61,328 nucleotides of DNA from Patescibacteria group bacterium (lineage in GTDB: Bacteria > Patescibacteriota > CPR2 > UBA1875): positions 1 to 61,328 of the forward strand of contig JBGSRK010000013.1 of assembly GCA_041737595.1 (NCBI GenBank). The letters run 5' to 3'. The notes beneath the pieces are model-generated. The model saw only the letters and a list, made by a program, of their open reading frames with translations, had not been told where the DNA came from and made no database searches. The translations under genes and the position numbers were made by a program. Position 1 is the first letter of the stretch, and each line of letters starts with the position of its first letter. Positions 2,098 to 61,328 of this stretch are shown here, piece by piece.

Positions 2098-2169
2098 GGG
2101 AAGGACGGACCTTCCGGAAGGTCCGTCCTTTGAATTAATAGATTGCCGCGCTAACGCTCGCAAAGACAA
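2098..2169. repeat. 72-nt composite repeat, copy 1 (GGACGGACCTTCCGGAAGGTCCGTCC palindrome + TAGATTGCCGCGCTAACGCTCGCAAAGAC REP unit)
   Basis: Near-identical (3 mismatches by eye) to 18241-18312. Confidence 0.85.
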
Positions 2170-2220
2170 TATATATATAATATTAATTTTTCGTTTTGCT
2201 CAGAATGACAAAAACACAAA

Positions 2221-2974: not shown

Positions 2975-3493
2975 TTACTTTTTTGTATCAGCATATTGTG
3001 AAAGAACACTTACAAGCCCACGTAAATTTCCTGAAAGAACATTTACCATACCTCGAAGAGGTGATGCGAGTGAACCAACAATTTTTGCATACATTTCTTC
3101 TCGGCTAGGCATCATCGCAAGTGTCTTAAGCTCATCCATAGAAATACTATTTCCAGAAAGAGCACCACCAAGCATTTCGAATTTATCATTCTTTTTTGTG
3201 TATTCATAAATTGCCTTGGCCGGTTCGACCTCATCCATACCAAATGCAATTGCAACAGGGTGATCTTTAATAATACTCATATCAATATTTGCGCCCGCAT
3301 TACGAGCGGCAATATCAAAAAGAGTTCTTTTCATAACTTTAAGTTCGACTCCCTTAGAACGTAAGGTACTTCGAAGCTCAGTCATCTCTTCTACTGTAAG
3401 TCCACGATAATCAGTAAAAACGATTGCCTTAGATTCTTTAATCTTTTGGGTAACGCGCTCTACTAATTCTTCTTTTTGTTTTCTTGTGATCAT
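2975..3493 (-). CDS. rplJ: 50S ribosomal protein L10
   Basis: 172 aa, immediately upstream of rplL. Motifs: ...AIVFTDYRGLTVEEMTELRSTLR...GVELKVMKRTL. Confidence 0.9.
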   Translation of the reverse strand: MITRKQKEELVERVTQKIKESKAIVFTDYRGLTVEEMTELRSTLRSKGVELKVMKRTLFDIAARNAGANIDMSIIKDHPVAIAFGMDEVEPAKAIYEYTKKNDKFEMLGGALSGNSISMDELKTLAMMPSREEMYAKIVGSLASPLRGMVNVLSGNLRGLVSVLSQYADTKK

Positions 3494-3641
3494 ATACTTC
3501 CTTTATTTATAAAAAAAACTTTGGAAACATCCAAAGTGAAGATTTTGCTCCTCGGTAGCGAATTAAGGCGAATGCCTGCTACTTTCTTTGGATATTTAAC
3601 TGTAAAGATTTTAACAAATTTAATAATAATTGTCAATTATT

Positions 3642-3669
3642 TAGATTCTTCGACTTCGCTCAGAATGAC
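3642..3669. repeat. REP unit (reverse orientation: GTCATTCTGAGCGAAGTCGAAGAATCTA)
   Basis: Same family as 2812-2963. Confidence 0.75.
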
Positions 3670-3686
3670 AAAAAGCACAAATTACT

Positions 3687-4366
3687 TGTAAAAGACGAAG
3701 GGCTCCTCGTCTTTTCTCCTGAAGGAGTCAGACGAGAAGCCCAAAAGTAAGCAGCGGGTCTATGCCACCCTGCGACGTTTGGACCGTACTTGGTAACGTG
3801 GTTTAAGCGCCACGTAGCGCGGAAAGGTGCATGGACTCAGAGCACGCAGGAGGTCATTCCCCGGGGTGTATTCCGGCTGCCCGACCATTCGGGCTGACAA
3901 AGAGGTTTCCTTCTCTCCTTAGCAGAGCAGGCAGCTGCTTAAACGTGATAAGTCCTGTTTGTTCTCCCAGGGAGGACCAAGGAGAGCAAAACACGGTGGT
4001 GTGGTGGAGTTTGTGACTCCACGAGCATTACGCACGTTGAGGGCTCGAATATTCCGTTGCCCTAAACATTTAGAAACTGCGTTAGCTCCGCCCTCGCGCA
4101 CACCACCAAAACTGTCACAGATTGCTCTGTGTTTTTCTGTGGAGTCCAGAGAGAGGAAGTCGAACCTCTCAACTTTCCCTTAACAAGGGACTGTCTTACC
4201 TTAGAATATCTGGACGTTTGGTGCGGACCCTAACTCGCTCTCGCGGTTAATAGGACTTGATGCGACTCTTGTCTCACTACCTCGGCCTGGCGCATCCAGA
4301 AGGACTTTCCAGTCATACGAGGTAGGGTCCGCGTGTCAAAGTGTTGCAAGTAATTCTTTGCGACGA
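3687..4366 (-). ncRNA. Large GC-rich structured RNA of about 680 nt, class unassigned (carries an embedded tRNA-like module)
   Basis: No credible ORF. The minus-strand promoter is at 4400-4372 and a stem-loop plus U-run terminator at 3715-3687. Many nested helices are readable by eye, e.g. GCGGACCCTA/TAGGGTCCGC (4332-4323 with 4232-4223), GGTGGTGTG/CACACCACC (4107-4099 with 4003-3995) and CTCTCCTT/AAGGAGAG. Confidence 0.6.
4140..4215 (-). tRNA. tRNA-like element, exactly 76 nt with encoded CCA; possible GUU (Asn) anticodon; non-canonical D and T arms
   Basis: Minus strand reads GTCCAGA-TA-TTCT..AAGGTA..AGAC-A-GTCCC-TTGTTAA-GGGAA-AGTT-GAGAGG-TTCGACTT-CCTCTC-TCTGGAC-T-CCA. The 7-bp acceptor is perfect and a GGTTCGA T-loop motif is present. 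U33 and A37 flank GUU. However, the T-loop is 8 nt with a 6-bp stem, and the D stem is weak. Confidence 0.35.
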
Positions 4367-4371
4367 AAGAC

Positions 4372-4400
4372 ATAATATCAAAATTATTTATTAAAGTCAA
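4372..4400 (-). promoter_or_regulatory. Sigma70-type promoter of the 3687-4366 RNA
   Basis: On the minus strand, TTGACT (4400-4395), 17-nt spacer ending TGA, then TATTAT (4377-4372). Confidence 0.55.
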
Positions 4401-4470
4401 TTGATTAAAATTATTTATATATTTATTTATTAATGCTATAGGTGTTTAGATTCAAATATCTAAAACAGAG

Positions 4471-4498
4471 CACTACACTACTACGTAGTAGTGTAGTG
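4471..4498. repeat. Perfect 28-bp palindrome CACTACACTACTACGTAGTAGTGTAGTG
   Basis: Checked base by base. It sits in the AT-rich spacer between the thyX-like terminator and the ncRNA promoter. Confidence 0.9.
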
Positions 4499-4533
4499 TT
4501 TAAAATTATATATATTTGATTATATTAAAAGTG

Positions 4534-4563
4534 AAAACCCCACCATCCTTTCGGACAATGGGG
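4534..4563 (-). terminator. Intrinsic terminator of the thyX-like/tmk unit
   Basis: Minus-strand RNA CCCCAUUGUCC-GAAA-GGAUGGUGGGG followed by UUUU. Three positions are G.U wobbles only in the minus sense. The loop is a GNRA tetraloop. Confidence 0.75.
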
Positions 4564-4593
4564 CGTATCACCTCCAATCATATTGTTGTCGCG

Positions 4594-5958
4594 TTACACG
4601 CGACGACGAGGGAAGTAGTTTTCCCCTCGATCTTGTGTTGTCATGTCTCTTCCGCAAGGATCTCCTTCGCCACAAACCTTGCAACCGTAGCAAGGAGGAA
4701 CCATTGCTCTCGGCAACATGTGTCCAGGATACAGCAGCTCGATCTGTGGTGCGATCTGGATGTCCTTGTTGAAGTGCTCTTGCTGAGCCTTCATACATGA
4801 ACGCTTCGAAAGATCGTGGATCGCTGAGGCGAAGTCTGAGCTCTTGACGTAGGTGACCATCGCACCATAAGGCGCGAGGTTTACGTGCAGTGAGGGGTCA
4901 AGAGAATCACGAAGGCCCATCCAATTTCTCTGGACCTGCACAATCCCTTTCTCCATCCCGATTGCCTGAGCAATCGGTGGCACATAGATTTCACCTGTGA
5001 ACTTCGCCTCACTCCTCTTGACGCTTCGATGGCGTTGATCTTGTCCCATCGTCATCACCGACATTGTCTCACACGTTCGGAGGTTCAATGTTCGGAGATC
5101 GAGGTATTCGGGCTTCACGGGTAGGAAGTCGATCGGATGGATATCCTCCCTTGGAGGGGGATCGCCGTAATACGGATCGACATCGAGTACCACAGATATT
5201 GGATCATGAACAGGTTTGCACGAAGTCCCGATGAACTCCGGTTCCTTGTTCAGTTCACCGATATCTCCAAACATGTACCCGATCTTGGGGTCCTCAGCCA
5301 GAACAAGTTCCACCATCTTCTGAAGGACCAGACGCATGCCTGGCTTCCAAGCCGCTCTGTACTGAGTGACCAGAGTGACGAGATCGACGGTGTAATAGAA
5401 CGCAGTTGGGAAGATCACCGGGATCGCAACCCGAAGCTGCTCTTGGGCTAGCTTCTTGGCATTATTCTCGATGAACTTCTCGGACGCTCGAGGTCGCTCT
5501 TCACGAATGAGTTGAGCCGCTTCTTGCGTTGCGATGGGCATGTTCTCGTGGAAGAGCACCATGCCTTCTTCAACGAAATCAAGAACCATCTTGCGATCGG
5601 CCGCAGATGACTCCGGATAGACGGTATCAAGAAGATCACTGATCCGGCTTATCCCACTCGCATTGAACATGTCAGAGGTGTACCTACCACTTCGCTGATC
5701 TGTGTTGTACCAGGGCGTAGTGTAGTGGAACCCGAAAGTAACATCTCCGACAGAACATCCCTCAACACTGAACGTGTAGTTCCCATGCTCAAGTGTCGTG
5801 TGGTGTCCAGAGCCAAAGAGTTGACCGCGCACAGTAGGACGTTTCTTCATCCCACGACCCGGCAACTCCGCTTCGTAGCAAGTACGAGCTGCATGTTGAG
5901 CCATGGATTCGGCTGTAAGACGTGGCGAGTTGATCAAAGTTACCCTCATAGCTTTCAC
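4594..5958 (-). CDS. ThyX-family (flavin-dependent thymidylate synthase-like) protein; atypical 454-aa tandem-domain form with a Cys-rich tail
   Basis: N-half: SGHHTTLEH ... NTDQRSGRY ... RVAIPVIFPTAFYYTV. C-half: GQDQRHRSVKRSE ... RSCMKAQQEH. These resemble the ThyX motifs (GHxSxxEH, RHRxxS...S.RY, R....AQxE) split over two repeats. The C-terminus is CYGCKVCGEGDPC. GC-rich. The ORF overlaps the tmk stop by 4 nt. Confidence 0.6.
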   Translation of the reverse strand: MKAMRVTLINSPRLTAESMAQHAARTCYEAELPGRGMKKRPTVRGQLFGSGHHTTLEHGNYTFSVEGCSVGDVTFGFHYTTPWYNTDQRSGRYTSDMFNASGISRISDLLDTVYPESSAADRKMVLDFVEEGMVLFHENMPIATQEAAQLIREERPRASEKFIENNAKKLAQEQLRVAIPVIFPTAFYYTVDLVTLVTQYRAAWKPGMRLVLQKMVELVLAEDPKIGYMFGDIGELNKEPEFIGTSCKPVHDPISVVLDVDPYYGDPPPREDIHPIDFLPVKPEYLDLRTLNLRTCETMSVMTMGQDQRHRSVKRSEAKFTGEIYVPPIAQAIGMEKGIVQVQRNWMGLRDSLDPSLHVNLAPYGAMVTYVKSSDFASAIHDLSKRSCMKAQQEHFNKDIQIAPQIELLYPGHMLPRAMVPPCYGCKVCGEGDPCGRDMTTQDRGENYFPRRRV

Positions 5959-6581
5959 CTCCCTTCGAGGCGACGTGAGAAGTCATCCCAGATGAACTTC
6001 CCAATTGTGACTTCATCAGGCAAAGCATCAACGACAACGATCCGACCAGGATTCTCCTTCGCGATTGTATCGAAGCCGTTGGAAACACGATGATGGAACG
6101 CCATTTCCTCAAGATCGAAGGTCGTGTTCTCATCTTCGCGTCCGATTGCTCTCGGAACGCCGATCTCGGGGTCGATCTTGTTGTAGTAGGTGACGTCCGG
6201 AACCAAGCCCTGAATCGCGGCATTGTTGTACTGCTTCACATAGTAGATCGGTTGACCTCGACCATACCCCTGGTATGCAAGGGTTGAGTCGATATATCGA
6301 TCACACACTACATGAATCCCGGCTTCGAGCCACTTGTAGATCTGGTTGACGTGTAGTACTCGATCTGCTTCAAACAGGAATATCTCGGCCATAGAGCTGA
6401 GCTTCCTGGTCGGGTGCAGAAGTGCTTCCCTAATCGGGAGCGTCTCAGGAATCCCTCCAGGTTCCTTTGTCCAAACGTTTCGGATGTTCAGATTGTCGAG
6501 TTGGGCTTTGAGCCTCATCGACTGAGTGGTCTTACCTGATCCTTCGCCACCTTCAAAGGTGACAAATAGTCCTCTTTCCAT
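5955..6581 (-). CDS. tmk: Thymidylate kinase
   Basis: FVTFEGGEGSGKTTQ P-loop and DRYIDSTLAYQGYGRG. Start moved to ATG 6581 (GGAAGGAGGGG SD). GC-rich. Confidence 0.9.
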   Translation of the reverse strand: MERGLFVTFEGGEGSGKTTQSMRLKAQLDNLNIRNVWTKEPGGIPETLPIREALLHPTRKLSSMAEIFLFEADRVLHVNQIYKWLEAGIHVVCDRYIDSTLAYQGYGRGQPIYYVKQYNNAAIQGLVPDVTYYNKIDPEIGVPRAIGREDENTTFDLEEMAFHHRVSNGFDTIAKENPGRIVVVDALPDEVTIGKFIWDDFSRRLEGR

Positions 6582-6737
6582 TTCCCCTCCTTCCAATATG
6601 ATTTTCGGTGGTCAAAGTGCACAAAAACGACAGAAGATAACCTAAATCTTTCAGATTTGGTGCCCTCCTGTCGTTGTAATTGTCAATTACCAAGTTATAT
6701 TTATTTATAGTTATTGTAAATAGTTTTTTAATGAAGA

Positions 6738-6759
6738 GTGCCGCCCCGAAGGGCGGCAC
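6738..6759 (-). terminator. Stem-loop after the dcd-like gene
   Basis: GTGCCGCC-ccgaag-GGCGGCAC, 22 nt downstream of the stop, followed by only a weak U-run. Confidence 0.55.
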
Positions 6760-6780
6760 ATCAACGTCATACTTGGGAGG

Positions 6781-7920
6781 CTACTTGCAGATCTCGGGCA
6801 TTGCAAAATGCTTCGAGAGTCTGGGCCCAGCCTGATTGAGGTAGTTGTTTCCCGACTGACCGTAAAGCTTTGTGGGCCTTTCGATCATCGAATACAACTC
6901 CATTGCACAGACCGGATCGCCGTGACTTAGGATGATGTCCTCGTGAGGGATCACCTCAAGCACCGCCGGTCCTCCAGAAAGCCCATTGGTGTAACCCCAA
7001 CCTGGATCAAAGAATCCCGCAAAGTGTGAGCGGTATTCTCCAATCCCAACGTTGTAGGCGACCATTTCCGAACAGTAGCCCGGCGGTACAGAGAATGCCT
7101 CACGTGTCGAAAGGATATAGAAACCATCCTTGGAAAGAACGATGTCTTTTCCTTTCGACGCATAGATCGGTTCGAAGAACCCCAGGGGGTCAATTCCACG
7201 CTTGCGAAAATCGACTGCGTTGGTTGCAGCACCGCGGAAGCGAAATGCAGCAACCTCGCCGCAAAGATTCGCCGAAAGGACAATTGAAGTCTTGATTCTC
7301 TTCATATCATCCCATGGAATCTTGTTCCCCTCGAGATCAAACAGCAGACCAGTATCTTCGTGGGTAGTTTGGAGTTCGAGGAGAGAAACCTCGCACTCTT
7401 CCATCCGACCCTGATAGAAACGGATCTGGTTCAGAGTATCCCCGACCCTAACACGAACTGGGAAACTCTTCGCTACGACGACTACGTACATCGGGCCCTT
7501 GTAACCCATCTGTACATTGTCGAACTCATGAGCGCCATTAGTGAGCAATCGAACCTGAAGATTCAGACGGCCCGAAGAACTCTTGTTGTTGGCCCTGGCG
7601 CACATATAGTCGGGAAGGGAGATGTTCTCTGCAAGAGGTAGAAGATATGGAATACCCGTTTCAAGCAGAAAACCACTCTGAGAGATTGGGATGCGGAAGA
7701 ATCCCGCATCTTGTGATCTCTTTGTCGCATCTGCCAAAATATCTCGACCTCCAGGCGACATAATCGCCGGAAGACGGATTGCCTCTCCCTCACCTATCGA
7801 AAGATCGAGTGAAGCTGGTTGAATGTTCTTTCCGGGGATCTTCACACTTGACTTGATCATCCCAGAGCCGATCATGCTCCTTATGAGCTTGTCGGGGACA
7901 ACACCAGATGCCTTGGACAT
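6781..7920 (-). CDS. dcd: Long-form 2'-deoxycytidine 5'-triphosphate deaminase-like protein (about 370-aa DCD family)
   Basis: GVVPDKLIRSMI..G.I......NIQPASLDLSIG...ETGIPYLLPL.E...LP......ANNKSSSGRLNL..R......EFD.V..GY.GP.Y......SFPV.VR.GD.LNQIRF matches my recollection of the long DCD family. GC-rich; AAGGAGG SD. Confidence 0.8.
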   Translation of the reverse strand: MSKASGVVPDKLIRSMIGSGMIKSSVKIPGKNIQPASLDLSIGEGEAIRLPAIMSPGGRDILADATKRSQDAGFFRIPISQSGFLLETGIPYLLPLAENISLPDYMCARANNKSSSGRLNLQVRLLTNGAHEFDNVQMGYKGPMYVVVVAKSFPVRVRVGDTLNQIRFYQGRMEECEVSLLELQTTHEDTGLLFDLEGNKIPWDDMKRIKTSIVLSANLCGEVAAFRFRGAATNAVDFRKRGIDPLGFFEPIYASKGKDIVLSKDGFYILSTREAFSVPPGYCSEMVAYNVGIGEYRSHFAGFFDPGWGYTNGLSGGPAVLEVIPHEDIILSHGDPVCAMELYSMIERPTKLYGQSGNNYLNQAGPRLSKHFAMPEICK

Positions 7921-54041: not shown

Positions 54042-57000
54042 TTATTGGGTTTTTTTGCCTAAATTACTAAAGAATGAACCAACATTACGTGTCCAACTAA
54101 ATGTTTCTTCTAGACTTTTTAATATTAATTGAAGAATAGATTTTTCCTTGGAAGGTGTAACAAAAGTATAATCACTAGATTTTGTTTGATTTAATCTCTT
54201 ATCCTTTGAAACAATTCTAAAATGGTAGGTAGAAGCAGGGTTTAGGTCTTTAATAATAACTGTATGGGAGTTATTAAGCGATTCGTCTTCAATAGAAGCT
54301 TTGCCATATTTACCGCCGATTACACCCTCGTCATATTCAATTTTTGTTGTGGCTGGCTTATTTGTTGACCAAGAAATTATAGCTTGTGCATATTCATCAG
54401 ACTCACCTAGTGGGAGAATATCTATCTTAACTTTATCTATTTCTGGGCCTGTTTTATCTATTGGAGTCTCAAAAGAAAGATTTGACGACTTTGAAGAATT
54501 ACCTATCTTATCTTTTACTTCAACATAATATGCATATGTTGTGCCGTCTGTTAGATTTTTTAACTCTATTTGATGTATTTTAGAATATTGAGCAACCCCC
54601 GCCTTTTGATCAAATTTACCCTTTTCACCATAAGATACCGACGATTCGGTTTCAACATTTGTGGTAAATGTAACTACAGCCAGATATGGATCTTCTAAAT
54701 TAATTTTAAGATTTTGGATTTCAGGTTTAAGAACGGCAGTGAATTTATATTCTTTTGATGTATATTCTACATCATTAATATCAAGACCTCGAACTTTATA
54801 AAAATAAGTCGTCCCAGGAGTTAAATTTTTAAGCTCAACAACATGAACTGTATTATATTCATTACTACCTGCAGACTGCCCATATTCTTCAGATTTAGTT
54901 CCGAAATCGACCCAAGTAGTTGTTGCAATCAAAGTGTTCCAAACAATTTTTGCACTAGTTGCGGTAATATTTTCTTCTGCAATATTTGAGGCATCTGGCT
55001 GAATTACAAATTGAGAAGAATCAAATGGCTTTGTACTAAATGTCGCAAATTGGGTATTAGCAATATATTTATCTTCAGTCACAGAACGTATTTTATATGT
55101 ATAAGTAGTCGCCGGTTTAAGAGATTTTATTACAACCTCATGTGATCTGAGTAAAGCTGGATCGCCTGCTGTTTGTGAATCTTCGGACGACGATTCTCTT
55201 TTATATTCAACCGATGAATCAGCATTAATATTTGTTGTCCATTTAACTTTAGCAGTTGTTGTAGTTGGTTCTACTGTTATTCCTGAAATTGAGAAATCTT
55301 GGGTTTTAAATTCTTTCCAAGTGTTAGCTGCAGTTGTATCAATATTCCCTAGAGAATTTCTAGAAACAATTCTATATTCATAAGTTTTGCCCTTTTCTAA
55401 TCCAAGTAAATTTATTGTATGTGATGTAACTGGGGTAGTTCTATCTTTACCAGCGGCAATTACTATATTTGTATCTTTAATTCTATATTCAACAAGTGAA
55501 TCTGCCTGTTGATCTGTGGACCAGGTTATTGTAGCAGAAGAAACACCTACCCCAGTGTAATTAATATTAGAAACAATCGGTATAGCTGACCCAGGGTTAA
55601 TCGAAACCGGTGATTGATAAGTACTTCTATTGGAAATATTATTAATAACTGTTTCATCTGCATATTTATAATCTGTACCAGCATCATCAACGGAGATAAC
55701 ATAATATGAGTATTCTTTATCCTTTTCAGCAATAGAAATACCGTCAACATGATAGTTATCACCAATATCTGTTTTTTCTGTAATTTTCGTGGCACTTGCA
55801 ATACCTAAGGTTGATTCAAAGCGCCAAACTTCATATTTTGAAAAATCACTTTGACTGTTTCTTTGAGGATCTGATATCATCTGCCAAGTAACAATATTTC
55901 GGACCATTGAGTCGTTAGCATGGATATTTTTAACAGTTACCTCTTGAGGTTGATCTGGCGCGGTTATATCTGGGACAGTATCCCAACCGCTATTATGAGT
56001 TCCGAGGCCAATAGACGAAAGACCAGACTTAACTATCTGCTCATTTTCAGGTGTACCTGGGTCATTTTCAATCGAAACATTTAAACCATATGCAATAATT
56101 TTATAATAATAAGTTGTTGCATCGTCTTCAACTGTATCAGTATAACTTCTTTCAATATCCTGGATCTCTCCCGCAATAGAAAGATTATTTATTTCATGTA
56201 TTGGGGTAAGAGCTTCCCACTCGCCATCATTTTCATAGTTAATTGTAGAACGATATATTTTATAATCAGTGATCGAATTTTCAATTACTTTTATTTTTGA
56301 TCCTAAAAATGTTATGTTAATTTTATTACCAACGTTTGAGTCAGTATTTGGGTCCCCTTTTACAGCTTGAACAGTTACGTTTGAAGGGGAGGTTGGAACC
56401 TGAGAATTTTTTGTTCTAACGCTCTTATAAGTACTTAAAACACTAGTTAAATCTGCATTATCAGTTGATGAAACTCGATAATAAAAATATGTATCTTCGG
56501 TTAGACCATTATCAGAATAACTCACTCCAGTACCAGTATAGATTAATTGTTCTCCGGCTCCTTGATCTGACGTCGCACGATAAAGCTTATAATTTTTTAT
56601 TCCCGAACCGTTTCCCGTTGGTATTCTATCTATTGTTCTTGTATCTGTTGAAGCAGACCAGGTTATATTTGTTCCTTGAGTTTCGCCTGTATTATCTACC
56701 CCAATTGCAGAAGCAGAGAGGCCAGTTGGAGTTGATGGAGGTGTTTTATCTGTAGTTTTGGCTGTCCCTGAGTTATATGCCATATTAAGCGGATACCCAG
56801 GTTCTGAAGCAATAACATCAGTCTCATTTAGATTATCATCTACAGCTGTTACACGATAAAAATAATCAACATAATCATTAAGTCTAGTTGTTGCTTGAGA
56901 TTTTATTGAACCGATTGTTACATCAGTGAATGTAGCGTCATTATTTGTATCATTATCATAATAGGTAGTAATTGGATTTTCTGGTGCAACAACTTGGTTT

Positions 57001-60000
57001 TTTGGTGGGTTAATGTCTATATAACCAACTATTACATAATCACTTGCTTCAGATGAGTAGGTCCCTGTTTTACGATAGATTTTATAGCCTGTTACCCCAG
57101 AACCAGCATCTGTTGTGGCATTCCAAGTAAGTTTTATTTCGTAACCCTTATTTGCAATATTTGAACATTTTTGTGATGTACCATCACATGCAACTGCCGT
57201 AACACCACCAAAAGCAACAGGATCAACCCCATCTACAGTTAATCCCCTTGTAACTGAAACTGGCCAGACTCCCCAATCTGCTGGATGGGCCAAGTCTTTT
57301 GCACGAATTCGATAATAATATGAAACAGATTGTTCAATCGCGCTACCAGTCGTGAGCGTACAACCAGCCGTAGACACACCAGTTATGGTTTCAGTGAGTG
57401 AAGTGTTTATGGCACAATCGACTAACGCATATGTTTGAGAGTTGCTCCAAGTACCTGTTGGGGTTAAGACATCTTGTTCATATATAGTTTTTTTAACTCT
57501 TTCTATTTGATGGTTAGAAATGGCAGATCCGGCAGCATTGTAACTCCAAGAAAGATTAATATTATTTGTATCATTTTGAGATACTGAGAATGTTTGAGGA
57601 GTAGTCGGAACAGCTGTATCAAGGATTATTGTGTCTAAAATAGTATTAAAATTTGGGTTTACTGTTCTAACACAAATTATTTTTTTAGACATTGTTTTTG
57701 TTCCAGATCCGCTTCCACTTGGATATGGATAAGGTATATATCTTGCTGAACTTTCACTTGATTCTGTAGCAATCCAAATATCTTCTGTAAAATCTAAATC
57801 GAAGGTCACATTATGATTCAAAATATAACTTAACTCACTATAATATGGTAGTCTACCGCCAACAAGTTGACATGCATTTTGAGCTGGATATGCAGAAAAA
57901 TCGACACTTGAACTTTCAACTAATGAGTAATTAGTTGGGTATTTTGCATCTAAACCAACCTCACACTGAGGACTCGTGCAAGAAGTTACTGTCGATTTCC
58001 ATTGATAATTTGTTGGAAGATATTGATGATAGACTTGTTTATCATCTAGAACTGTACCAGAGGGCCCATCAATATAATCATCTGCAAATAAATCTGGTTC
58101 TCCCGCTACATTCCCAGCCTCATCTTTTACTCGTATATAAATTTCTTTAGCACCATCAGAACCTTCTAAATACCAAGCATCTGTAATAGTTTGAACATTG
58201 ATTTCATGAGGATTAATTGTTTCATAATACGTCCAATCGGTTGATTTGTTATTTGTGGTTCCACTGCCAGAATAAGTCCCCCAATTTGTCCCATCTTGTG
58301 AAAATTGAACTTTTAAATCTTTATTATTACCATTGTCATAATAAACACCTTTTGTTGTAACTAAACGATTTGCTTCGGTTATATATTCTGTACTTCCACC
58401 TGAAGATTCAACATAAAATCCAGAAAGGGTCGGAGTACTTAAATCTAAAATAATAGAGTCAGAGACATTCACCGAATCAAACTGAATATCATAAAAAGTT
58501 GGTGTATTATTACCATCACCTGTTAGAGTGGCTTTGTATTGAAGGTATTGATGATTATCAAGCTCACTTGGAGCGTCTTCGCCAGAGGTAAGAGTATAGT
58601 AGCCTGTCCAGGTACCGTCTGGTATAGCGGTATTGCCAGCTCTGGCCTTGATAGAAATGGCAGTATTTGCAGGAGTAGTGTCGACATTGAAAATGACTAC
58701 ACCAAAATCAGTTACCTCTTGGCCAGAATCAAAGACTTCTGAATTAAGTAATCCTAAATAATTAAGGGTGTTTGTGGGGATATCCCTAACACAACGAACA
58801 TAATAATTGGTAGTTTTGTCGCTTAATCCTAAGCCTCCATTAGAAAAAGTAACAAAAATGGCCTGGCTGTCACTAGTTTGAGTAGCACTCCAAAAAAAGC
58901 CTGTACCAAAATTATTTCCATAAGAAGCACTATCCACATAAAGATCATGCAACTCATTGTAATATGGGAGTCTTCCACCCAACACACTACATGCATTCCG
59001 AGCAGGATAATCAGAATAATCCACAGCATTAGAGGCATTTAGGGCCATCTTTGCCGTAAAAGCAGGATCAATGCCTAGAGAACACTGTGGCTCACTACAG
59101 TTTGTACTATACAACCCCCAACCATACCTCTCTGAGAGATTTTGAGAGTACACCTGCTTGCCCTCTAGATAAGACTCGGCCAAACCATCGTAAATCCATC
59201 CTGAATTATTTACTGGTGATAAAGTAACATTGCCGTTTTCGGCGCTTAGACCTTGCAAAGTATCCCCCGCAAAGTCATCATCACTGGTCTGTAACCATGT
59301 TCCGCTCACATTCCCAGCATTATCCCGATATTGAGCATAAACTGTTTTTTCACCTTCTCCAGAAGTTAGGTTCCAGGATTTTGAGGCAGCATATGCCTCC
59401 CACTCCTCTGTATCGAAAACCCCATCATTACTAAACCTCATCTGCCCAAGATTAGACCCACCTATATCAACCGCTGAAGATGTATCAAGGGTTACATTTT
59501 GAGAATTAGCATAGGCACCACCGTTAATAACTACATTACCAGTCGGAACAGACTGGTCAATAGTGATATCTGCTGACGTTTCTTCATTAGCACCATAAGC
59601 TGTCCAGCCAGAAACCCTGCCCTGATCATCTATGGCTCTTACTTGGAGGTGATATTCTGAGCCATTCGTAAGGCTTGTGATATCAACATAATTATTTCCA
59701 GCCTCAGCGGTGTATATATTATCAGAAGAATCGAAGGCGGTACCAATTTCTTCAATCTCTACTTCTGGGCGAATATTTTCAGGTGTGACACAACCCGTAC
59801 AAGTTAGATTATTAGCCGTAACTCTTAGAGTTGATTCGTTAGACCAAGCATCTGGCACTCCGCCGCTGACAGTAGTTCCAGACGAGTTTTTTAGACTTGT
59901 GGCGTCTGTTTTTGTAAGCACGATATTGGCGTTTGTAGGAGCCTCGAGGGTGTCATAGGTAATAGTGAAATCATTAAGAATTGGGGTACTAATTCCGTCA

Positions 60001-61328
60001 ATTGATTCTAATGTGAGTTCTACTTCCAGCCATTGTGACGGGGCTGAAGTGATTATACTGCCCGAGACTTCATAATAACCTGACCATTCAGCTGTAGTAA
60101 GTTCTAATTCTGTATTAGCACCTCGAGTTCGAAATTTTATATTAGTATTTACTGGTTCTGTGCCATTCCATGATATGGTCGACCAAGAAACAATAGAACC
60201 ACCATTAATTTTTAATCCACCTAAAACACCCTGGGTATAGTAATTATCTTGGCTTTTTATACCTATAAAATTAGATATACTTGATGTGTAACCTACTTTA
60301 AAAATATTTCCAGAATTATCTAACCCCATCATACAATCTCTTGAAGCTGATATATATTCTATACCTGTCCAATTTTGTGCAGGAGTATAATCCCACGCAT
60401 ATTGGGAAAGAGAAGGAGACACTAATAATTCTCCATTTTGAGTTAACGCAAATGTGTTATATCTTCCAACCGTGATTTGTTTTACGCCACTCCAACTTCC
60501 AACATCAATTCCCCCATAATATGGATTGCTTGGGTATTCTGCAACAACAGTACCATCATTTTTAAGACCAATTACGTGGCTATCACCAGCTTTGATAGAA
60601 ATAATATCGCTCCACAGGGTTGTAATTGAAAGATCTGAGCCATTATAATGAAGTTTACCTAACACATTGCCTGATTCATTTAAACCAACTGTTTTATCAC
60701 CCCCAGTTGATATAATTTTAACATTTGTCCACTGTGACAAATTTGATGCTGCAATACTATCCCCTCCTACATAAACGACAGTGCCTGTTTCGGTTATTGC
60801 AACTGTATGATCTAAATATGCAGAAACTGATTTAAGGTTAGGCCATGAACCAAAATTCAATTGACCATATAAATTACTACCACTACCAACTATTGTTCCA
60901 TCTGATTTTAACCCCACAATATGATTTCTACCTGCACTTACTTCAATTAGATTATTCCAAGTAGTTGATAAACAACTTACTCCAGCACCACTACAAACAG
61001 CCGTACCATCAGATTTAATAGCAACTGCGACATTATCAGACCCAATAAATGTATTATGATTACTTTCAGAATCAATAATTACTCTATCACTTAAATCTGT
61101 CACTACATTATTAGATATTGTAGGAGAACCAGTACTAGTTTCGTTATTGCTAAAATCACCTTTTGTTGTCCAAGTAACTGAGTTAGCAGCCGATTTAACC
61201 TCACGCGGTTTCCAGAGATTCAAATATGGGAATAATTGTTGAGCTCCTTGAAAAATTACAAATGAAAGTATAAAAGAAACAAAAACGGTTTTATGAATAG
61301 GAGAAGTATATTTTTTATCTGAATATTT
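54042..61328 (-). CDS. Giant surface protein (over 2,428 aa; the 5' end lies just beyond the right edge): anchor, RCC1-like propeller repeats, two Cys-framed lectin-like (DUF1566-like) modules, many FN3/Ig-like repeats
   Basis: The track ORF 54042-61223 is open upstream to 61328 in my reading (..KYSDKKYTSPIHKTVFVSFILSFVIFQGAQQLFPY-LNLWKP..). Repeats of the type H.VGLK.DGT.V..G.N..GQ near the N-terminus. Modules YPARNACSVLGGRLPYYNEL...FFWSAT...YYVRCVRD and YPAQNACQLVGGRLPYYSEL...ICVRT. About six C-terminal repeats of the type A.I.W.T....DS.VEY......Y.Y.V.S. Confidence 0.85.
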   Translation of the reverse strand, partial: KYSDKKYTSPIHKTVFVSFILSFVIFQGAQQLFPYLNLWKPREVKSAANSVTWTTKGDFSNNETSTGSPTISNNVVTDLSDRVIIDSESNHNTFIGSDNVAVAIKSDGTAVCSGAGVSCLSTTWNNLIEVSAGRNHIVGLKSDGTIVGSGSNLYGQLNFGSWPNLKSVSAYLDHTVAITETGTVVYVGGDSIAASNLSQWTNVKIISTGGDKTVGLNESGNVLGKLHYNGSDLSITTLWSDIISIKAGDSHVIGLKNDGTVVAEYPSNPYYGGIDVGSWSGVKQITVGRYNTFALTQNGELLVSPSLSQYAWDYTPAQNWTGIEYISASRDCMMGLDNSGNIFKVGYTSSISNFIGIKSQDNYYTQGVLGGLKINGGSIVSWSTISWNGTEPVNTNIKFRTRGANTELELTTAEWSGYYEVSGSIITSAPSQWLEVELTLESIDGISTPILNDFTITYDTLEAPTNANIVLTKTDATSLKNSSGTTVSGGVPDAWSNESTLRVTANNLTCTGCVTPENIRPEVEIEEIGTAFDSSDNIYTAEAGNNYVDITSLTNGSEYHLQVRAIDDQGRVSGWTAYGANEETSADITIDQSVPTGNVVINGGAYANSQNVTLDTSSAVDIGGSNLGQMRFSNDGVFDTEEWEAYAASKSWNLTSGEGEKTVYAQYRDNAGNVSGTWLQTSDDDFAGDTLQGLSAENGNVTLSPVNNSGWIYDGLAESYLEGKQVYSQNLSERYGWGLYSTNCSEPQCSLGIDPAFTAKMALNASNAVDYSDYPARNACSVLGGRLPYYNELHDLYVDSASYGNNFGTGFFWSATQTSDSQAIFVTFSNGGLGLSDKTTNYYVRCVRDIPTNTLNYLGLLNSEVFDSGQEVTDFGVVIFNVDTTPANTAISIKARAGNTAIPDGTWTGYYTLTSGEDAPSELDNHQYLQYKATLTGDGNNTPTFYDIQFDSVNVSDSIILDLSTPTLSGFYVESSGGSTEYITEANRLVTTKGVYYDNGNNKDLKVQFSQDGTNWGTYSGSGTTNNKSTDWTYYETINPHEINVQTITDAWYLEGSDGAKEIYIRVKDEAGNVAGEPDLFADDYIDGPSGTVLDDKQVYHQYLPTNYQWKSTVTSCTSPQCEVGLDAKYPTNYSLVESSSVDFSAYPAQNACQLVGGRLPYYSELSYILNHNVTFDLDFTEDIWIATESSESSARYIPYPYPSGSGSGTKTMSKKIICVRTVNPNFNTILDTIILDTAVPTTPQTFSVSQNDTNNINLSWSYNAAGSAISNHQIERVKKTIYEQDVLTPTGTWSNSQTYALVDCAINTSLTETITGVSTAGCTLTTGSAIEQSVSYYYRIRAKDLAHPADWGVWPVSVTRGLTVDGVDPVAFGGVTAVACDGTSQKCSNIANKGYEIKLTWNATTDAGSGVTGYKIYRKTGTYSSEASDYVIVGYIDINPPKNQVVAPENPITTYYDNDTNNDATFTDVTIGSIKSQATTRLNDYVDYFYRVTAVDDNLNETDVIASEPGYPLNMAYNSGTAKTTDKTPPSTPTGLSASAIGVDNTGETQGTNITWSASTDTRTIDRIPTGNGSGIKNYKLYRATSDQGAGEQLIYTGTGVSYSDNGLTEDTYFYYRVSSTDNADLTSVLSTYKSVRTKNSQVPTSPSNVTVQAVKGDPNTDSNVGNKINITFLGSKIKVIENSITDYKIYRSTINYENDGEWEALTPIHEINNLSIAGEIQDIERSYTDTVEDDATTYYYKIIAYGLNVSIENDPGTPENEQIVKSGLSSIGLGTHNSGWDTVPDITAPDQPQEVTVKNIHANDSMVRNIVTWQMISDPQRNSQSDFSKYEVWRFESTLGIASATKITEKTDIGDNYHVDGISIAEKDKEYSYYVISVDDAGTDYKYADETVINNISNRSTYQSPVSINPGSAIPIVSNINYTGVGVSSATITWSTDQQADSLVEYRIKDTNIVIAAGKDRTTPVTSHTINLLGLEKGKTYEYRIVSRNSLGNIDTTAANTWKEFKTQDFSISGITVEPTTTTAKVKWTTNINADSSVEYKRESSSEDSQTAGDPALLRSHEVVIKSLKPATTYTYKIRSVTEDKYIANTQFATFSTKPFDSSQFVIQPDASNIAEENITATSAKIVWNTLIATTTWVDFGTKSEEYGQSAGSNEYNTVHVVELKNLTPGTTYFYKVRGLDINDVEYTSKEYKFTAVLKPEIQNLKINLEDPYLAVVTFTTNVETESSVSYGEKGKFDQKAGVAQYSKIHQIELKNLTDGTTYAYYVEVKDKIGNSSKSSNLSFETPIDKTGPEIDKVKIDILPLGESDEYAQAIISWSTNKPATTKIEYDEGVIGGKYGKASIEDESLNNSHTVIIKDLNPASTYHFRIVSKDKRLNQTKSSDYTFVTPSKEKSILQLILKSLEETFSWTRNVGSFFSNLGKKTQ

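Follow-up and report, generated by a model that had tools for sequence, protein, structure and literature searches.

A candidate family of structured noncoding RNAs with an embedded tRNA-like module in Patescibacteria

The 61,328-nt contig JBGSRK010000013.1 (assembly GCA_041737595.1) of a Patescibacteria group bacterium, referred to here as the window, contains between a long-form thyX gene and the leader of the ribosomal protein L10 gene an interval (3690-4400) that probably constitutes a self-contained gene for a structured noncoding RNA, which embeds a tRNA-like module and belongs to a family absent from Rfam 15. All coordinates are those of the window unless a homologous locus is named, and the RNA gene, with all its parts, is read on the minus strand. 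Its guanine-cytosine (GC) content is 52.7%, versus 36.8% for the window as a whole. A preliminary description of this DNA had proposed an independent large RNA gene with its own promoter and terminator, holding only short open reading frames (ORFs) and a tRNA-like module and distinct from the housekeeping RNAs, and each of these proposals is upheld by the results that follow.

Transcription signals, coding potential and searches for known families

A promoter scan placed a sigma-70 promoter at 4372-4400, with the -35 element TTGACT (4395-4400) separated by a 17-nt spacer from the -10 element TATTAT (4372-4377), the latter being of the extended type (TGaTATTAT, 4372-4380); 10 out of 12 positions match the consensus. 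At the opposite end, AAGACGAGG-agcc-CUUCGUCUU followed by UU forms an intrinsic terminator (3690-3713). A primary transcript of ~676 nt is thus predicted, running from ~4365, a start deduced from the promoter, to 3690, an end deduced from the terminator. An alternative longer hairpin, GGGCUUCUCGUC...GACGAGGAGCCC (3701-3742), overlaps the terminator. Two terminator-like hairpins (4537-4564 and 4471-4498, minus strand) stand between thyX and the RNA promoter; one of them is a perfect 28-nt palindrome, CACTACACTACTACGTAGTAGTGTAGTG, and the other a 12-bp terminator-like stem followed by a T-run. Directly past the RNA terminator lies another promoter (3608-3636, minus strand; TTGACA-17-TAAAAT), followed by the L10 leader (3503-3609, minus strand; Rfam RF00557, 56.7 bits with a threshold of 44), which is directly upstream of rplJ (2975-3493) and then rplL. 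With a dedicated promoter and a complete L10 leader, rplJ thus represents a separate transcription unit.

Stop codons were found in all six frames of 3690-4400 (4 to 13 per frame), the longest open stretch comprising 86 codons, and the seven largest ORFs of the interval (42-74 codons) gave no Pfam match at E ≤ 1. Moreover, the insertions and deletions that separate the RNA from its closest homologue (L085, see below) measured 1, 2, 4 and 14 nt, i.e. not multiples of three. The interval encodes no protein.

At gathering thresholds, Rfam 15 returned the L10 leader as the sole match in the whole window. When the region 3500-4600 was searched at E ≤ 10, a tRNA of 26.3 bits was the only relevant additional match, and the models for RNase P, transfer-messenger RNA (tmRNA), 6S, signal recognition particle (SRP), GOLLD, ROOL, OLE, raiA, HEARO and introns were all absent. 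The same families were likewise missing at E ≤ 1 from loci L083, L085, L086, L095, L100 and L102, which represent six of the seven versions described below, and a YrlA match in L086 (28 bits, threshold 69) was at chance level. ARAGORN with default settings called neither a tRNA nor a tmRNA anywhere in the window. A group I or group II intron was considered and rejected, given the lack of an Rfam match, the presence of a dedicated promoter and terminator and the uninterrupted tRNA-like module. In the literature, we found no described Patescibacteria, thyX-linked or ribH-linked RNA of this kind.

Homologous units in related Patescibacteria

Homologous contigs were reached via the ThyX and L10 homologues in a large protein collection. 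We found seven distinct versions of the unit, that of the window included, all of them in related Patescibacteria and at the same kind of locus. All seven are preceded by a sigma-70 promoter, are rich in GC and end in a terminator. Behind the promoter comes a 5' region, which in most of them forms a long hairpin domain; it is followed by a tRNA or tRNA-like module, always oriented the same way, by an A-rich linker with a hairpin, by a variable middle part and by a conserved 3' domain. The unit in the window combines the promoter, the tRNA-like module, an A-rich linker with a hairpin, the 3' domain and the terminator, and is located at the 3' end of a dTTP-synthesis gene cluster. Its closest homologue (L085:1936-2660) aligned over the full length with 74% identity (nhmmer E 3e-108, with L085:1915-2647 as the counterpart of the transcript), and a more distant one (L098:4020-4800, the same as in L099 and L100) was recovered with an E of 1e-24, while L086, L095, L101 and L081 contain shorter and more divergent versions. 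Short forms measure 450-500 nt and long forms ~680-780 nt, the 3' core being common to both.

The unit follows thyX in 6 of the 7 loci, and a dCMP deaminase gene in the remaining one (L101). It precedes the L10 leader in 5 of the 7; in L081 an MscS gene comes next, and in L101 an HNH-like ORF. The latter (L101:3596-4018, plus strand), a 140-aa ORF between the RNA unit and the L10 leader, showed a weak HNH match (PF13392, E 1e-3), which hints at mobile DNA at that locus. An L10-anchored scan of GTDB species genomes covered 80 loci, none of which had the RNA; the nearest L10 among the scanned GTDB species representatives was 54% identical and came from an unclassified metagenome-assembled genome, with Saccharibacteria next. 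A metagenome pattern derived from the long-form 3' domain gave no match.

Architecture and conservation of the RNA

From 5' to 3', the RNA consists of a leader hairpin, a domain D1, the linker ACCAAAC, the tRNA-like module, an A-rich linker with a hairpin, a domain D2, a variable middle region, the 3' domain and the terminator. The leader hairpin UCUUUCGUCGCAAAGA (4355-4370) lies around the predicted start, and its UUUCGUCGCAAAGAA recurs unchanged in L085 and almost unchanged in L098. D1 (4223-4332) is branched and closed by a helix of 15-17 bp, GCGGACCCUACCUCG (4318-4332) / CGAGUUAGGGUCCGC (4223-4237), whose 17 aligned pairs display 4 double and 4 single changes with 3 unpaired cells; counted as 16 pairs, it carries changes on both strands in 4 of them and has 96.9% of its cells paired. 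The linker follows it. A long 5' closing helix of other sequence also exists in L101, directly before the tRNA, and in L086, where a degenerate tRNA-like copy separates it from the tRNA. A covariance model built from D1 (R3) failed to reach the short forms.

Downstream of the tRNA-like module, the segment 4108-4139 comprises the A-rich linker CAGAAAAAC, the small hairpin CACAGAGCAAUCUGUG (4116-4131), with 2 double changes in its helix, and CAGUUUUGG; this linker-hairpin-GUUUGG arrangement after the tRNA was also found in L085, L101, L095 and L098. D2 (3995-4107) is closed by GGUGGUGUG (4099-4107) / CACACCACC (3995-4003), nine pairs with 2 double changes and no mismatch, and contains the inner hairpin UGGAGUcacaaaACUCCA (4005-4021), its interior being different in L098. 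The central region D3 (3845-3994) is variable, with purine/pyrimidine tracts and indels of 2 and 14 nt. The conserved 3' domain (3743-3844) harbours the motif GCACCUU (3824-3830), a GC hairpin GCGCUACGUGGCGC (3807-3820), whose loop and 3' arm can alternatively pair with CCACGU (3796-3801), and a terminal hairpin (3746-3794) of the stacked helices AAGUA/UGCUU, GGUC/GACC and GUCGC/GUGGC with the loop AGG. In the terminator region (3690-3742), a helix of 9 pairs carries 2 double changes with 100% of its cells paired in an RNAalifold analysis of the long-form alignment. The 9-mer CCAAACGUC (minus strand) occurs twice in the RNA, at 4213-4228, the junction between the D1 linker and the 5' end of the tRNA-like module, and at 3774-3789, in the internal loop of the 3' hairpin, which may be due to chance.

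Conservation is not evenly distributed along the unit. Relative to L085, identity amounted to 66% in D1, 55% in the tRNA module, 88% in D2, 56-66% in the middle region, 86% in the 3' domain and 89% in the terminator region. In the same comparison, thyX was ~68% identical at the DNA level and 69% at the protein level, so that the neighbouring thyX coding sequence is much less conserved than D2 and the 3' domain. The family is modular: all members retain the 3' hairpin, and the long forms also preserve D2 and the remainder of the 3' domain well, whereas the 5' part and the identity of the tRNA vary freely, even where rplJ is 88-96% identical.

Compensatory changes discriminate the RNA from coding DNA

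All seven helices listed in the preliminary description exist as written, but only three of them are supported by compensatory changes in homologues: GCGGACCCUA/UAGGGUCCGC, which spans 16-17 bp and shows 4 double and 4 single changes, GGUGGUGUG/CACACCACC and UGGAGU/ACUCCA (UGAAGU/ACUUCA in L085). As for the others, rival pairings suit the homologues better in the case of CCUCG/CGAGG and GAGGGC/GCCCUC, and both CUCUCCUU/AAGGAGAG and the GCCCG hairpin are absent from L085 and L098.

A non-circular test was then applied, in which one sequence was folded alone and the fate of its predicted pairs was scored in another sequence. Of the doubly substituted pairs, 16 out of 22 were still paired when going from the window RNA to L085 and 19 out of 27 in the reverse direction, versus 10/27, 14/29, 5/20, 4/13, 8/29 and 9/25 in six comparisons between thyX sequences. 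That is, 70-73% of the doubly substituted predicted pairs were kept in the RNA and 25-48% in the coding controls. No control helix of at least 6 pairs was mismatch-free, unlike the closing helix of D2, and the D1 helix is longer than any control helix, its rate of unpaired cells being similar to that of the controls. We count the UGGAGU hairpin, D1, the D2 stem, the 3' hairpin and the terminator as supported.

A 3' hairpin shared with a ribH-linked small RNA

The terminator is immediately preceded by a long hairpin made up of an outer helix, GGUU/AACC, an internal loop GAUA/GAG, GCCAC/GUGGC and the loop AGG. All three of its helices covary across 16 sequences, which include members from the candidate phyla radiation (CPR) and the ribH-linked loci described below. 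The outer helix reads UCCA/UGGA, GGGUUUA/UGAACCC, GGUA/UACC, ACCA/UGGU or, in the window, AAGUA/UGCUU; the middle helix, GGUU/AACC or GGUC/GACC; and the inner helix, GCCAC/GUGGC, GCUAC/GUAGC, GCGAC/GUCGC or GUCGC/GUGGC. G-U pairs in the hairpin settle which strand is the RNA. A covariance model of the hairpin (R1), built without the window, L085 and L098, had its best match in 173 kb at 3746-3794 of the window (19.3 bits, E 0.003) and scored 38 bits (E 2e-9) on L098. A T-box-like UGGN/NCCA pairing, a K-turn, a CsrA site and 23S rRNA mimicry were considered for this hairpin by eye only, and fitted poorly.

A degenerate pattern of the short form retrieved 12 metagenome loci (L111-L122) of 51-69% GC, in which a near-identical hairpin ends an RNA of ~150 nt with its own terminator (e.g. 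L118:660-900 and L114:6200-6400, both plus strand). According to the ORF lists of L114 and L121 and to inspection by eye of four more loci, this RNA is arranged tail-to-tail with ribH. It starts near a conserved GUUCGUCGAAUCGAAC hairpin and gave no Rfam match at E ≤ 10, which makes it a candidate for a new small-RNA family in its own right. It resembles the window RNA in the terminal three-helix hairpin GGUUGAUAGCCACAGGGUGGCGAGAACC with its closing helix, placed directly before an intrinsic terminator, and differs from it in lacking the tRNA module, D1 and D2 and in its gene neighbourhood. A covariance model of the whole ribH-linked RNA (R2) transferred to the thyX-linked RNAs only via the hairpin; hence the hairpin is a shared module and not a proof of homology of both RNAs over their whole length.

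The tRNA-like module

The embedded module (4140-4215) matched the Rfam tRNA model over 4145-4213 with 26.3 bits, which does not reach the threshold of 29, and was called by ARAGORN at a relaxed setting (-ps90) as a 76-nt tRNA-Asn(GUU). Its acceptor stem is a perfect 7-bp helix, GUCCAGA/UCUGGAC, followed by an encoded U-CCA, and its T arm GAGGUUCGACUUCCUC is near-normal with one extra base; acceptor stem, discriminator/CCA and T arm all conform to those of a tRNA. The decoding half has a D stem of 3 bp, one mismatch in the anticodon stem and the canonical loop UUGUUAA. The homologues carry modules at the equivalent place, with scores of 27.5-63 bits and differing anticodons, so that the tRNA identity is different in every member: L085 has a canonical-looking tRNA-Cys(GCA) with U73, and the remaining five have GCU, 'ACU', 'AUC', 'UGU' or AAC loops. 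U33 is missing in 3 of the 7 modules, and several anticodon stems are broken. Overall, all seven modules retain the acceptor/T-arm half and five of them an encoded NCCA end, but the decoding half decays. In L086, the 5' region (2068-2100 and 2104-2176, plus strand) is a degenerate second tRNA-like copy, and a duplicate of its 20-nt T-arm stretch, TCGCAGGTTCGAATCCTGCC, lies 78 nt upstream of the embedded tRNA.

These features bear on a rival explanation that we regard as unlikely: that we are dealing with a tRNA transcription unit of the ordinary type, which in the window is turning into a pseudogene and whose long leader and trailer are kept only for their processing and termination signals, with no separate large functional RNA. 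The presence in every member of a tRNA or tRNA-like module in the orientation of the transcript, the canonical-looking tRNA-Cys(GCA) of L085, a 5' domain reduced to almost nothing in L081 (37-46 nt) and the patchy presence of the unit would all fit such a proposal. It is contradicted by a conservation that is higher in the flanks than in the tRNA itself, the least conserved part in the comparison with L085 (86-88% vs 55%), by the shifts in tRNA identity and by the modules that cannot decode, for want of U33 or because of broken anticodon stems. Besides, a 450-nt trailer with compensatory changes and a hairpin that recurs across phyla is atypical of a pre-tRNA.

A divergent GC-rich cassette and the question of mobility

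The RNA gene adjoins a dTTP-synthesis block (4594-7920, minus strand) of 51-52% GC, versus 33-37% in the flanking genes, which encodes a 379-aa two-domain dCTP deaminase, a thymidylate kinase and a 454-aa long-form ThyX with a Cys-rich tail (thyX, 4594-5958, minus strand; PF02511). Relatives carry a (dCMP deaminase or DCD)-tmk-thyX arrangement in the same position, most of them with dCMP deaminase and L123 with DCD, and in some of them ThyX has 250 aa. In most relatives, the GC content of the dTTP-synthesis genes is 0.52-0.59 (0.43 for the upstream gene of L101), versus 0.36-0.47 for rplJ. The preliminary description had taken this neighbour for a GC-rich imported block: the high GC content stands, but a one-off import does not, because relatives have a block at the same position that is also GC-rich, and what is found is thus a cassette common to the whole clade and often exchanged, not a unique import.

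Between the window and L085, rplJ shows 88-96% DNA identity and L10 98% protein identity, and a sharp break in identity is found at ~3670, beyond which the lower values of the RNA and thyX apply. It follows from this drop that the RNA is part of a divergent GC-rich cassette. The pattern suggests that recombination exchanges a dcd-tmk-thyX-RNA cassette among strains that are very close in other respects. An ORF of 2393 codons (54042-61223, minus strand) occupies the other end of the window.

It could then be argued that the RNA is a relic or cargo of mobile DNA, for instance a tRNA-gene integration hot spot or a cassette of phage origin that moved along with the GC-rich thyX block, in which structure is incidental or serves the element. 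We hold this to be rather improbable, and it would in any case be compatible with a structured RNA gene rather than exclusive of it. The identity break near 3670 (rplJ 88-96% vs 52-88% for thyX and the RNA), a GC content foreign to the flanks, the HNH-like ORF beside the RNA in L101, the duplicated T arm in L086 and the phage linkage of GOLLD and ROOL are in line with mobility. Nevertheless, neither an integrase nor flanking direct repeats (att-like repeats were sought around the block) were found, and the order of the locus is conserved in the clade. A phage or plasmid origin was rejected after blastn against phage and plasmid collections came back empty and four patterns and one protein query gave no true match in IMG/VR, where the 17-mer matches were due to chance and the family patterns retrieved nothing; of the association with mobile DNA that the preliminary description mentioned for such RNAs, no phage or plasmid link was thus found here. 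A connection of the neighbouring genes with defence systems was also discarded, as PADLOC reported nothing relevant, its only two matches both being to the thymidylate kinase.

Regulatory and housekeeping readings

Another conceivable reading, which we consider very improbable, is that of a cis-regulator, either an extended rplJ-rplL leader or a 3' untranslated region or attenuator of thyX, for which the overlap between hairpin and terminator at 3690-3742 would act as the switch. The location of the RNA between thyX and the L10 leader in 5 of the 7 loci agrees with it, as does the fact that both alternative 3' hairpins share the GACGAGGAGCCC segment and are both conserved in L085 and L098. Such a role is difficult to reconcile with the two terminators (4537-4564 and 4471-4498) that part the RNA from thyX and with its own promoter, with the promoter (3608-3636) and complete L10 leader that rplJ possesses, or with the MscS gene and the HNH-like ORF that follow the unit in L081 and L101, respectively.

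That the unit is a highly divergent housekeeping RNA of this lineage (RNase P RNA, tmRNA, 6S or SRP RNA) is largely refuted and hardly credible. RNase P RNA had come into consideration through the resemblance of GGAAAGUCC (4258-4266, minus strand) to its conserved region I and through a CR-V-like stretch, but neither L085 nor L098 retains the GGAAAGUCC motif. An element resembling a pseudoknot and the tRNA-like part do recall tmRNA; this RNA, its permuted form included, was rejected, as the module is a contiguous cloverleaf and not the split tRNA-like domain of tmRNA, there is no tag frame and ARAGORN called no tmRNA. None of the corresponding covariance models matched the window region at E ≤ 10 or the six homologous loci at E ≤ 1, and close relatives do without the RNA at this locus.

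Weighing the evidence

A gene for a large structured RNA has to be set against several observations that weigh against it. The minimum free energy (MFE) z-score was -6.1 for the RNA sense strand and -6.5 for the antisense strand, and among coding controls of equal length it reached -2.9 for thyX and -6.2 for a dcd segment (6900-7588, minus strand). As antisense and dcd coding DNA match the RNA, we discarded z-scores as evidence: with a coding segment folding as low as the RNA, they are unusable for RNA genes in this GC-rich block, and an argument from fold stability alone has no value here. Alignment-wide RNAalifold counts had to be discarded as well. For the long-form alignment (n = 3), we obtained 122 pairs with 94.6% of cells paired and 37 double-change pairs (4-7 with slid partners), and the same pipeline gave similar counts for the thyX alignment (n = 3), with 26-37 double changes and 86-88% of cells paired, so that they do not discriminate at n = 3; the RNAalifold covariation term, on the other hand, was worse for thyX (+6.6 to +7.7) than for the RNA (-0.95). 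It should be considered that there are only three distinct long-form sequences (the window, L085 and the L098 group), a number that allows no statistics of R-scape grade. In D3, the 150-nt middle, several pairings compete and the proposed helices are not consistently kept. The module may be a working tRNA in some members, given the tRNA-Cys(GCA) of L085. Finally, the RNA is absent upstream of rplJ in the close relatives L105-L108, L123 and L124, where unrelated genes or nothing were found (the contig of L110 ends too near rplJ to judge); such a patchy presence makes an essential role less likely and would be compatible with an element that is decaying or selfish.

Each of the rival explanations covers part of the data, but clashes with the conservation pattern, with the RNA's own transcription signals or with the model searches. 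We therefore retain as the probable reading a self-contained gene for a structured noncoding RNA.

Discussion

Should the unit be such a gene, the tRNA-like module would act as a structural or processing handle rather than as a decoder. RNase P, the CCA-adding enzyme and partners that bind the elbow all recognise a tRNA by its acceptor/T-arm half, and therefore the module could punctuate a longer transcript. From what is established about tRNA processing, RNase P would be expected to cut between 4216 and 4215, on the 5' side of the module, and the enzymes of the tRNA 3' end to act at the CCA (4140). The product might then be a processed set comprising a D1 fragment, a tRNA-like piece and a ~450-nt 3' RNA or, alternatively, an uncleaved RNA that presents a tRNA elbow. 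As for the functional core, this would be the conserved 3' domain, perhaps an RNA scaffold or a protein-binding module rather than a cis-regulator.

A broader proposal, which we put forward tentatively and to which we give slightly less than an even chance, is that these units represent an undescribed class of large RNAs, so far confined to one Patescibacteria lineage, in which a swappable tRNA or tRNA mimic is covalently embedded, flanked by a 5' hairpin domain that varies and a 3' core that is conserved, the hairpin at the end of the core being shared with an otherwise unrelated small RNA found beside ribH in high-GC phyla. It would be the third independently evolved 'ornate RNA with a tethered tRNA', after GOLLD and ROOL, and the shared hairpin would serve as a portable module for binding to, or docking on, a conserved partner.

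Structured bacterial RNAs larger than ~500 nt are rare, and each of the examples (RNase P, group I and II introns, OLE, GOLLD, ROOL) has opened a biochemical question. Members of the CPR have reduced genomes with little room for dispensable DNA, and this family would be the first large structured RNA of such kind reported from them. It would also offer a second, independent case of a tRNA tethered within a large RNA, allowing the ideas of cargo, handle and processing signal to be compared. Being small and modular, with short and long forms built on one 3' core, the family should be tractable for structure determination, and the hairpin in common with the ribH-linked small RNA points to a conserved partner. 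As regards annotation, a sub-threshold 'tRNA' beside rplJ in genomes of this type would be part of a larger RNA gene.

In GOLLD RNAs, the 3' region is conserved and the 5' region less so, and the linker between them sometimes contains tRNAs (PMC12286853); ROOL is a large RNA with multiple pseudoknots, often found beside tRNAs, without a known protein partner and not cis-regulatory (PMC5737381; PMC12286853); the statement in the preliminary description that both are associated with tRNAs and mobile DNA agrees with this literature. The candidate RNA is a member of neither family, although its layout is GOLLD-like. Homo-oligomeric cages made of RNA only are a further trait of GOLLD and ROOL. GOLLD and the window RNA are both large (>600 nt) free-standing bacterial RNAs, and the succession of a variable 5' part, a linker tRNA and a conserved 3' part is also that of the window RNA. 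The likeness is one of layout, and the window RNA differs in being shorter (~676 nt, with short forms of 450-500 nt), in escaping the GOLLD model at E ≤ 10, in its Patescibacteria hosts and in that no phage or prophage context was found. With ROOL it has in common that it is a large structured RNA associated with tRNAs. In ROOL, however, the tRNAs are neighbours and not embedded, the RNA is linked to phages and Firmicutes, and its Rfam model misses the window RNA. The phage, prophage and tRNA-island surroundings typical of both families are replaced in the window by thyX, tmk, dcd and rplJ. Larger RNAs that contain a tRNA-like module are known as well, namely tmRNA with its tRNA-like domain, the bacterial Y RNA YrlA, MALAT1-mascRNA and rRNA operons with spacer tRNAs. 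Shared with these is the retention of the acceptor/T-arm half and, in most members of the window family, of an encoded CCA end, the anticodon arm being free to decay. Neither rsr nor smpB is linked to the window RNA and, compared to the modules of all these systems, that of the window family is distinguished as a complete, contiguous cloverleaf, which in some members is possibly a real tRNA.

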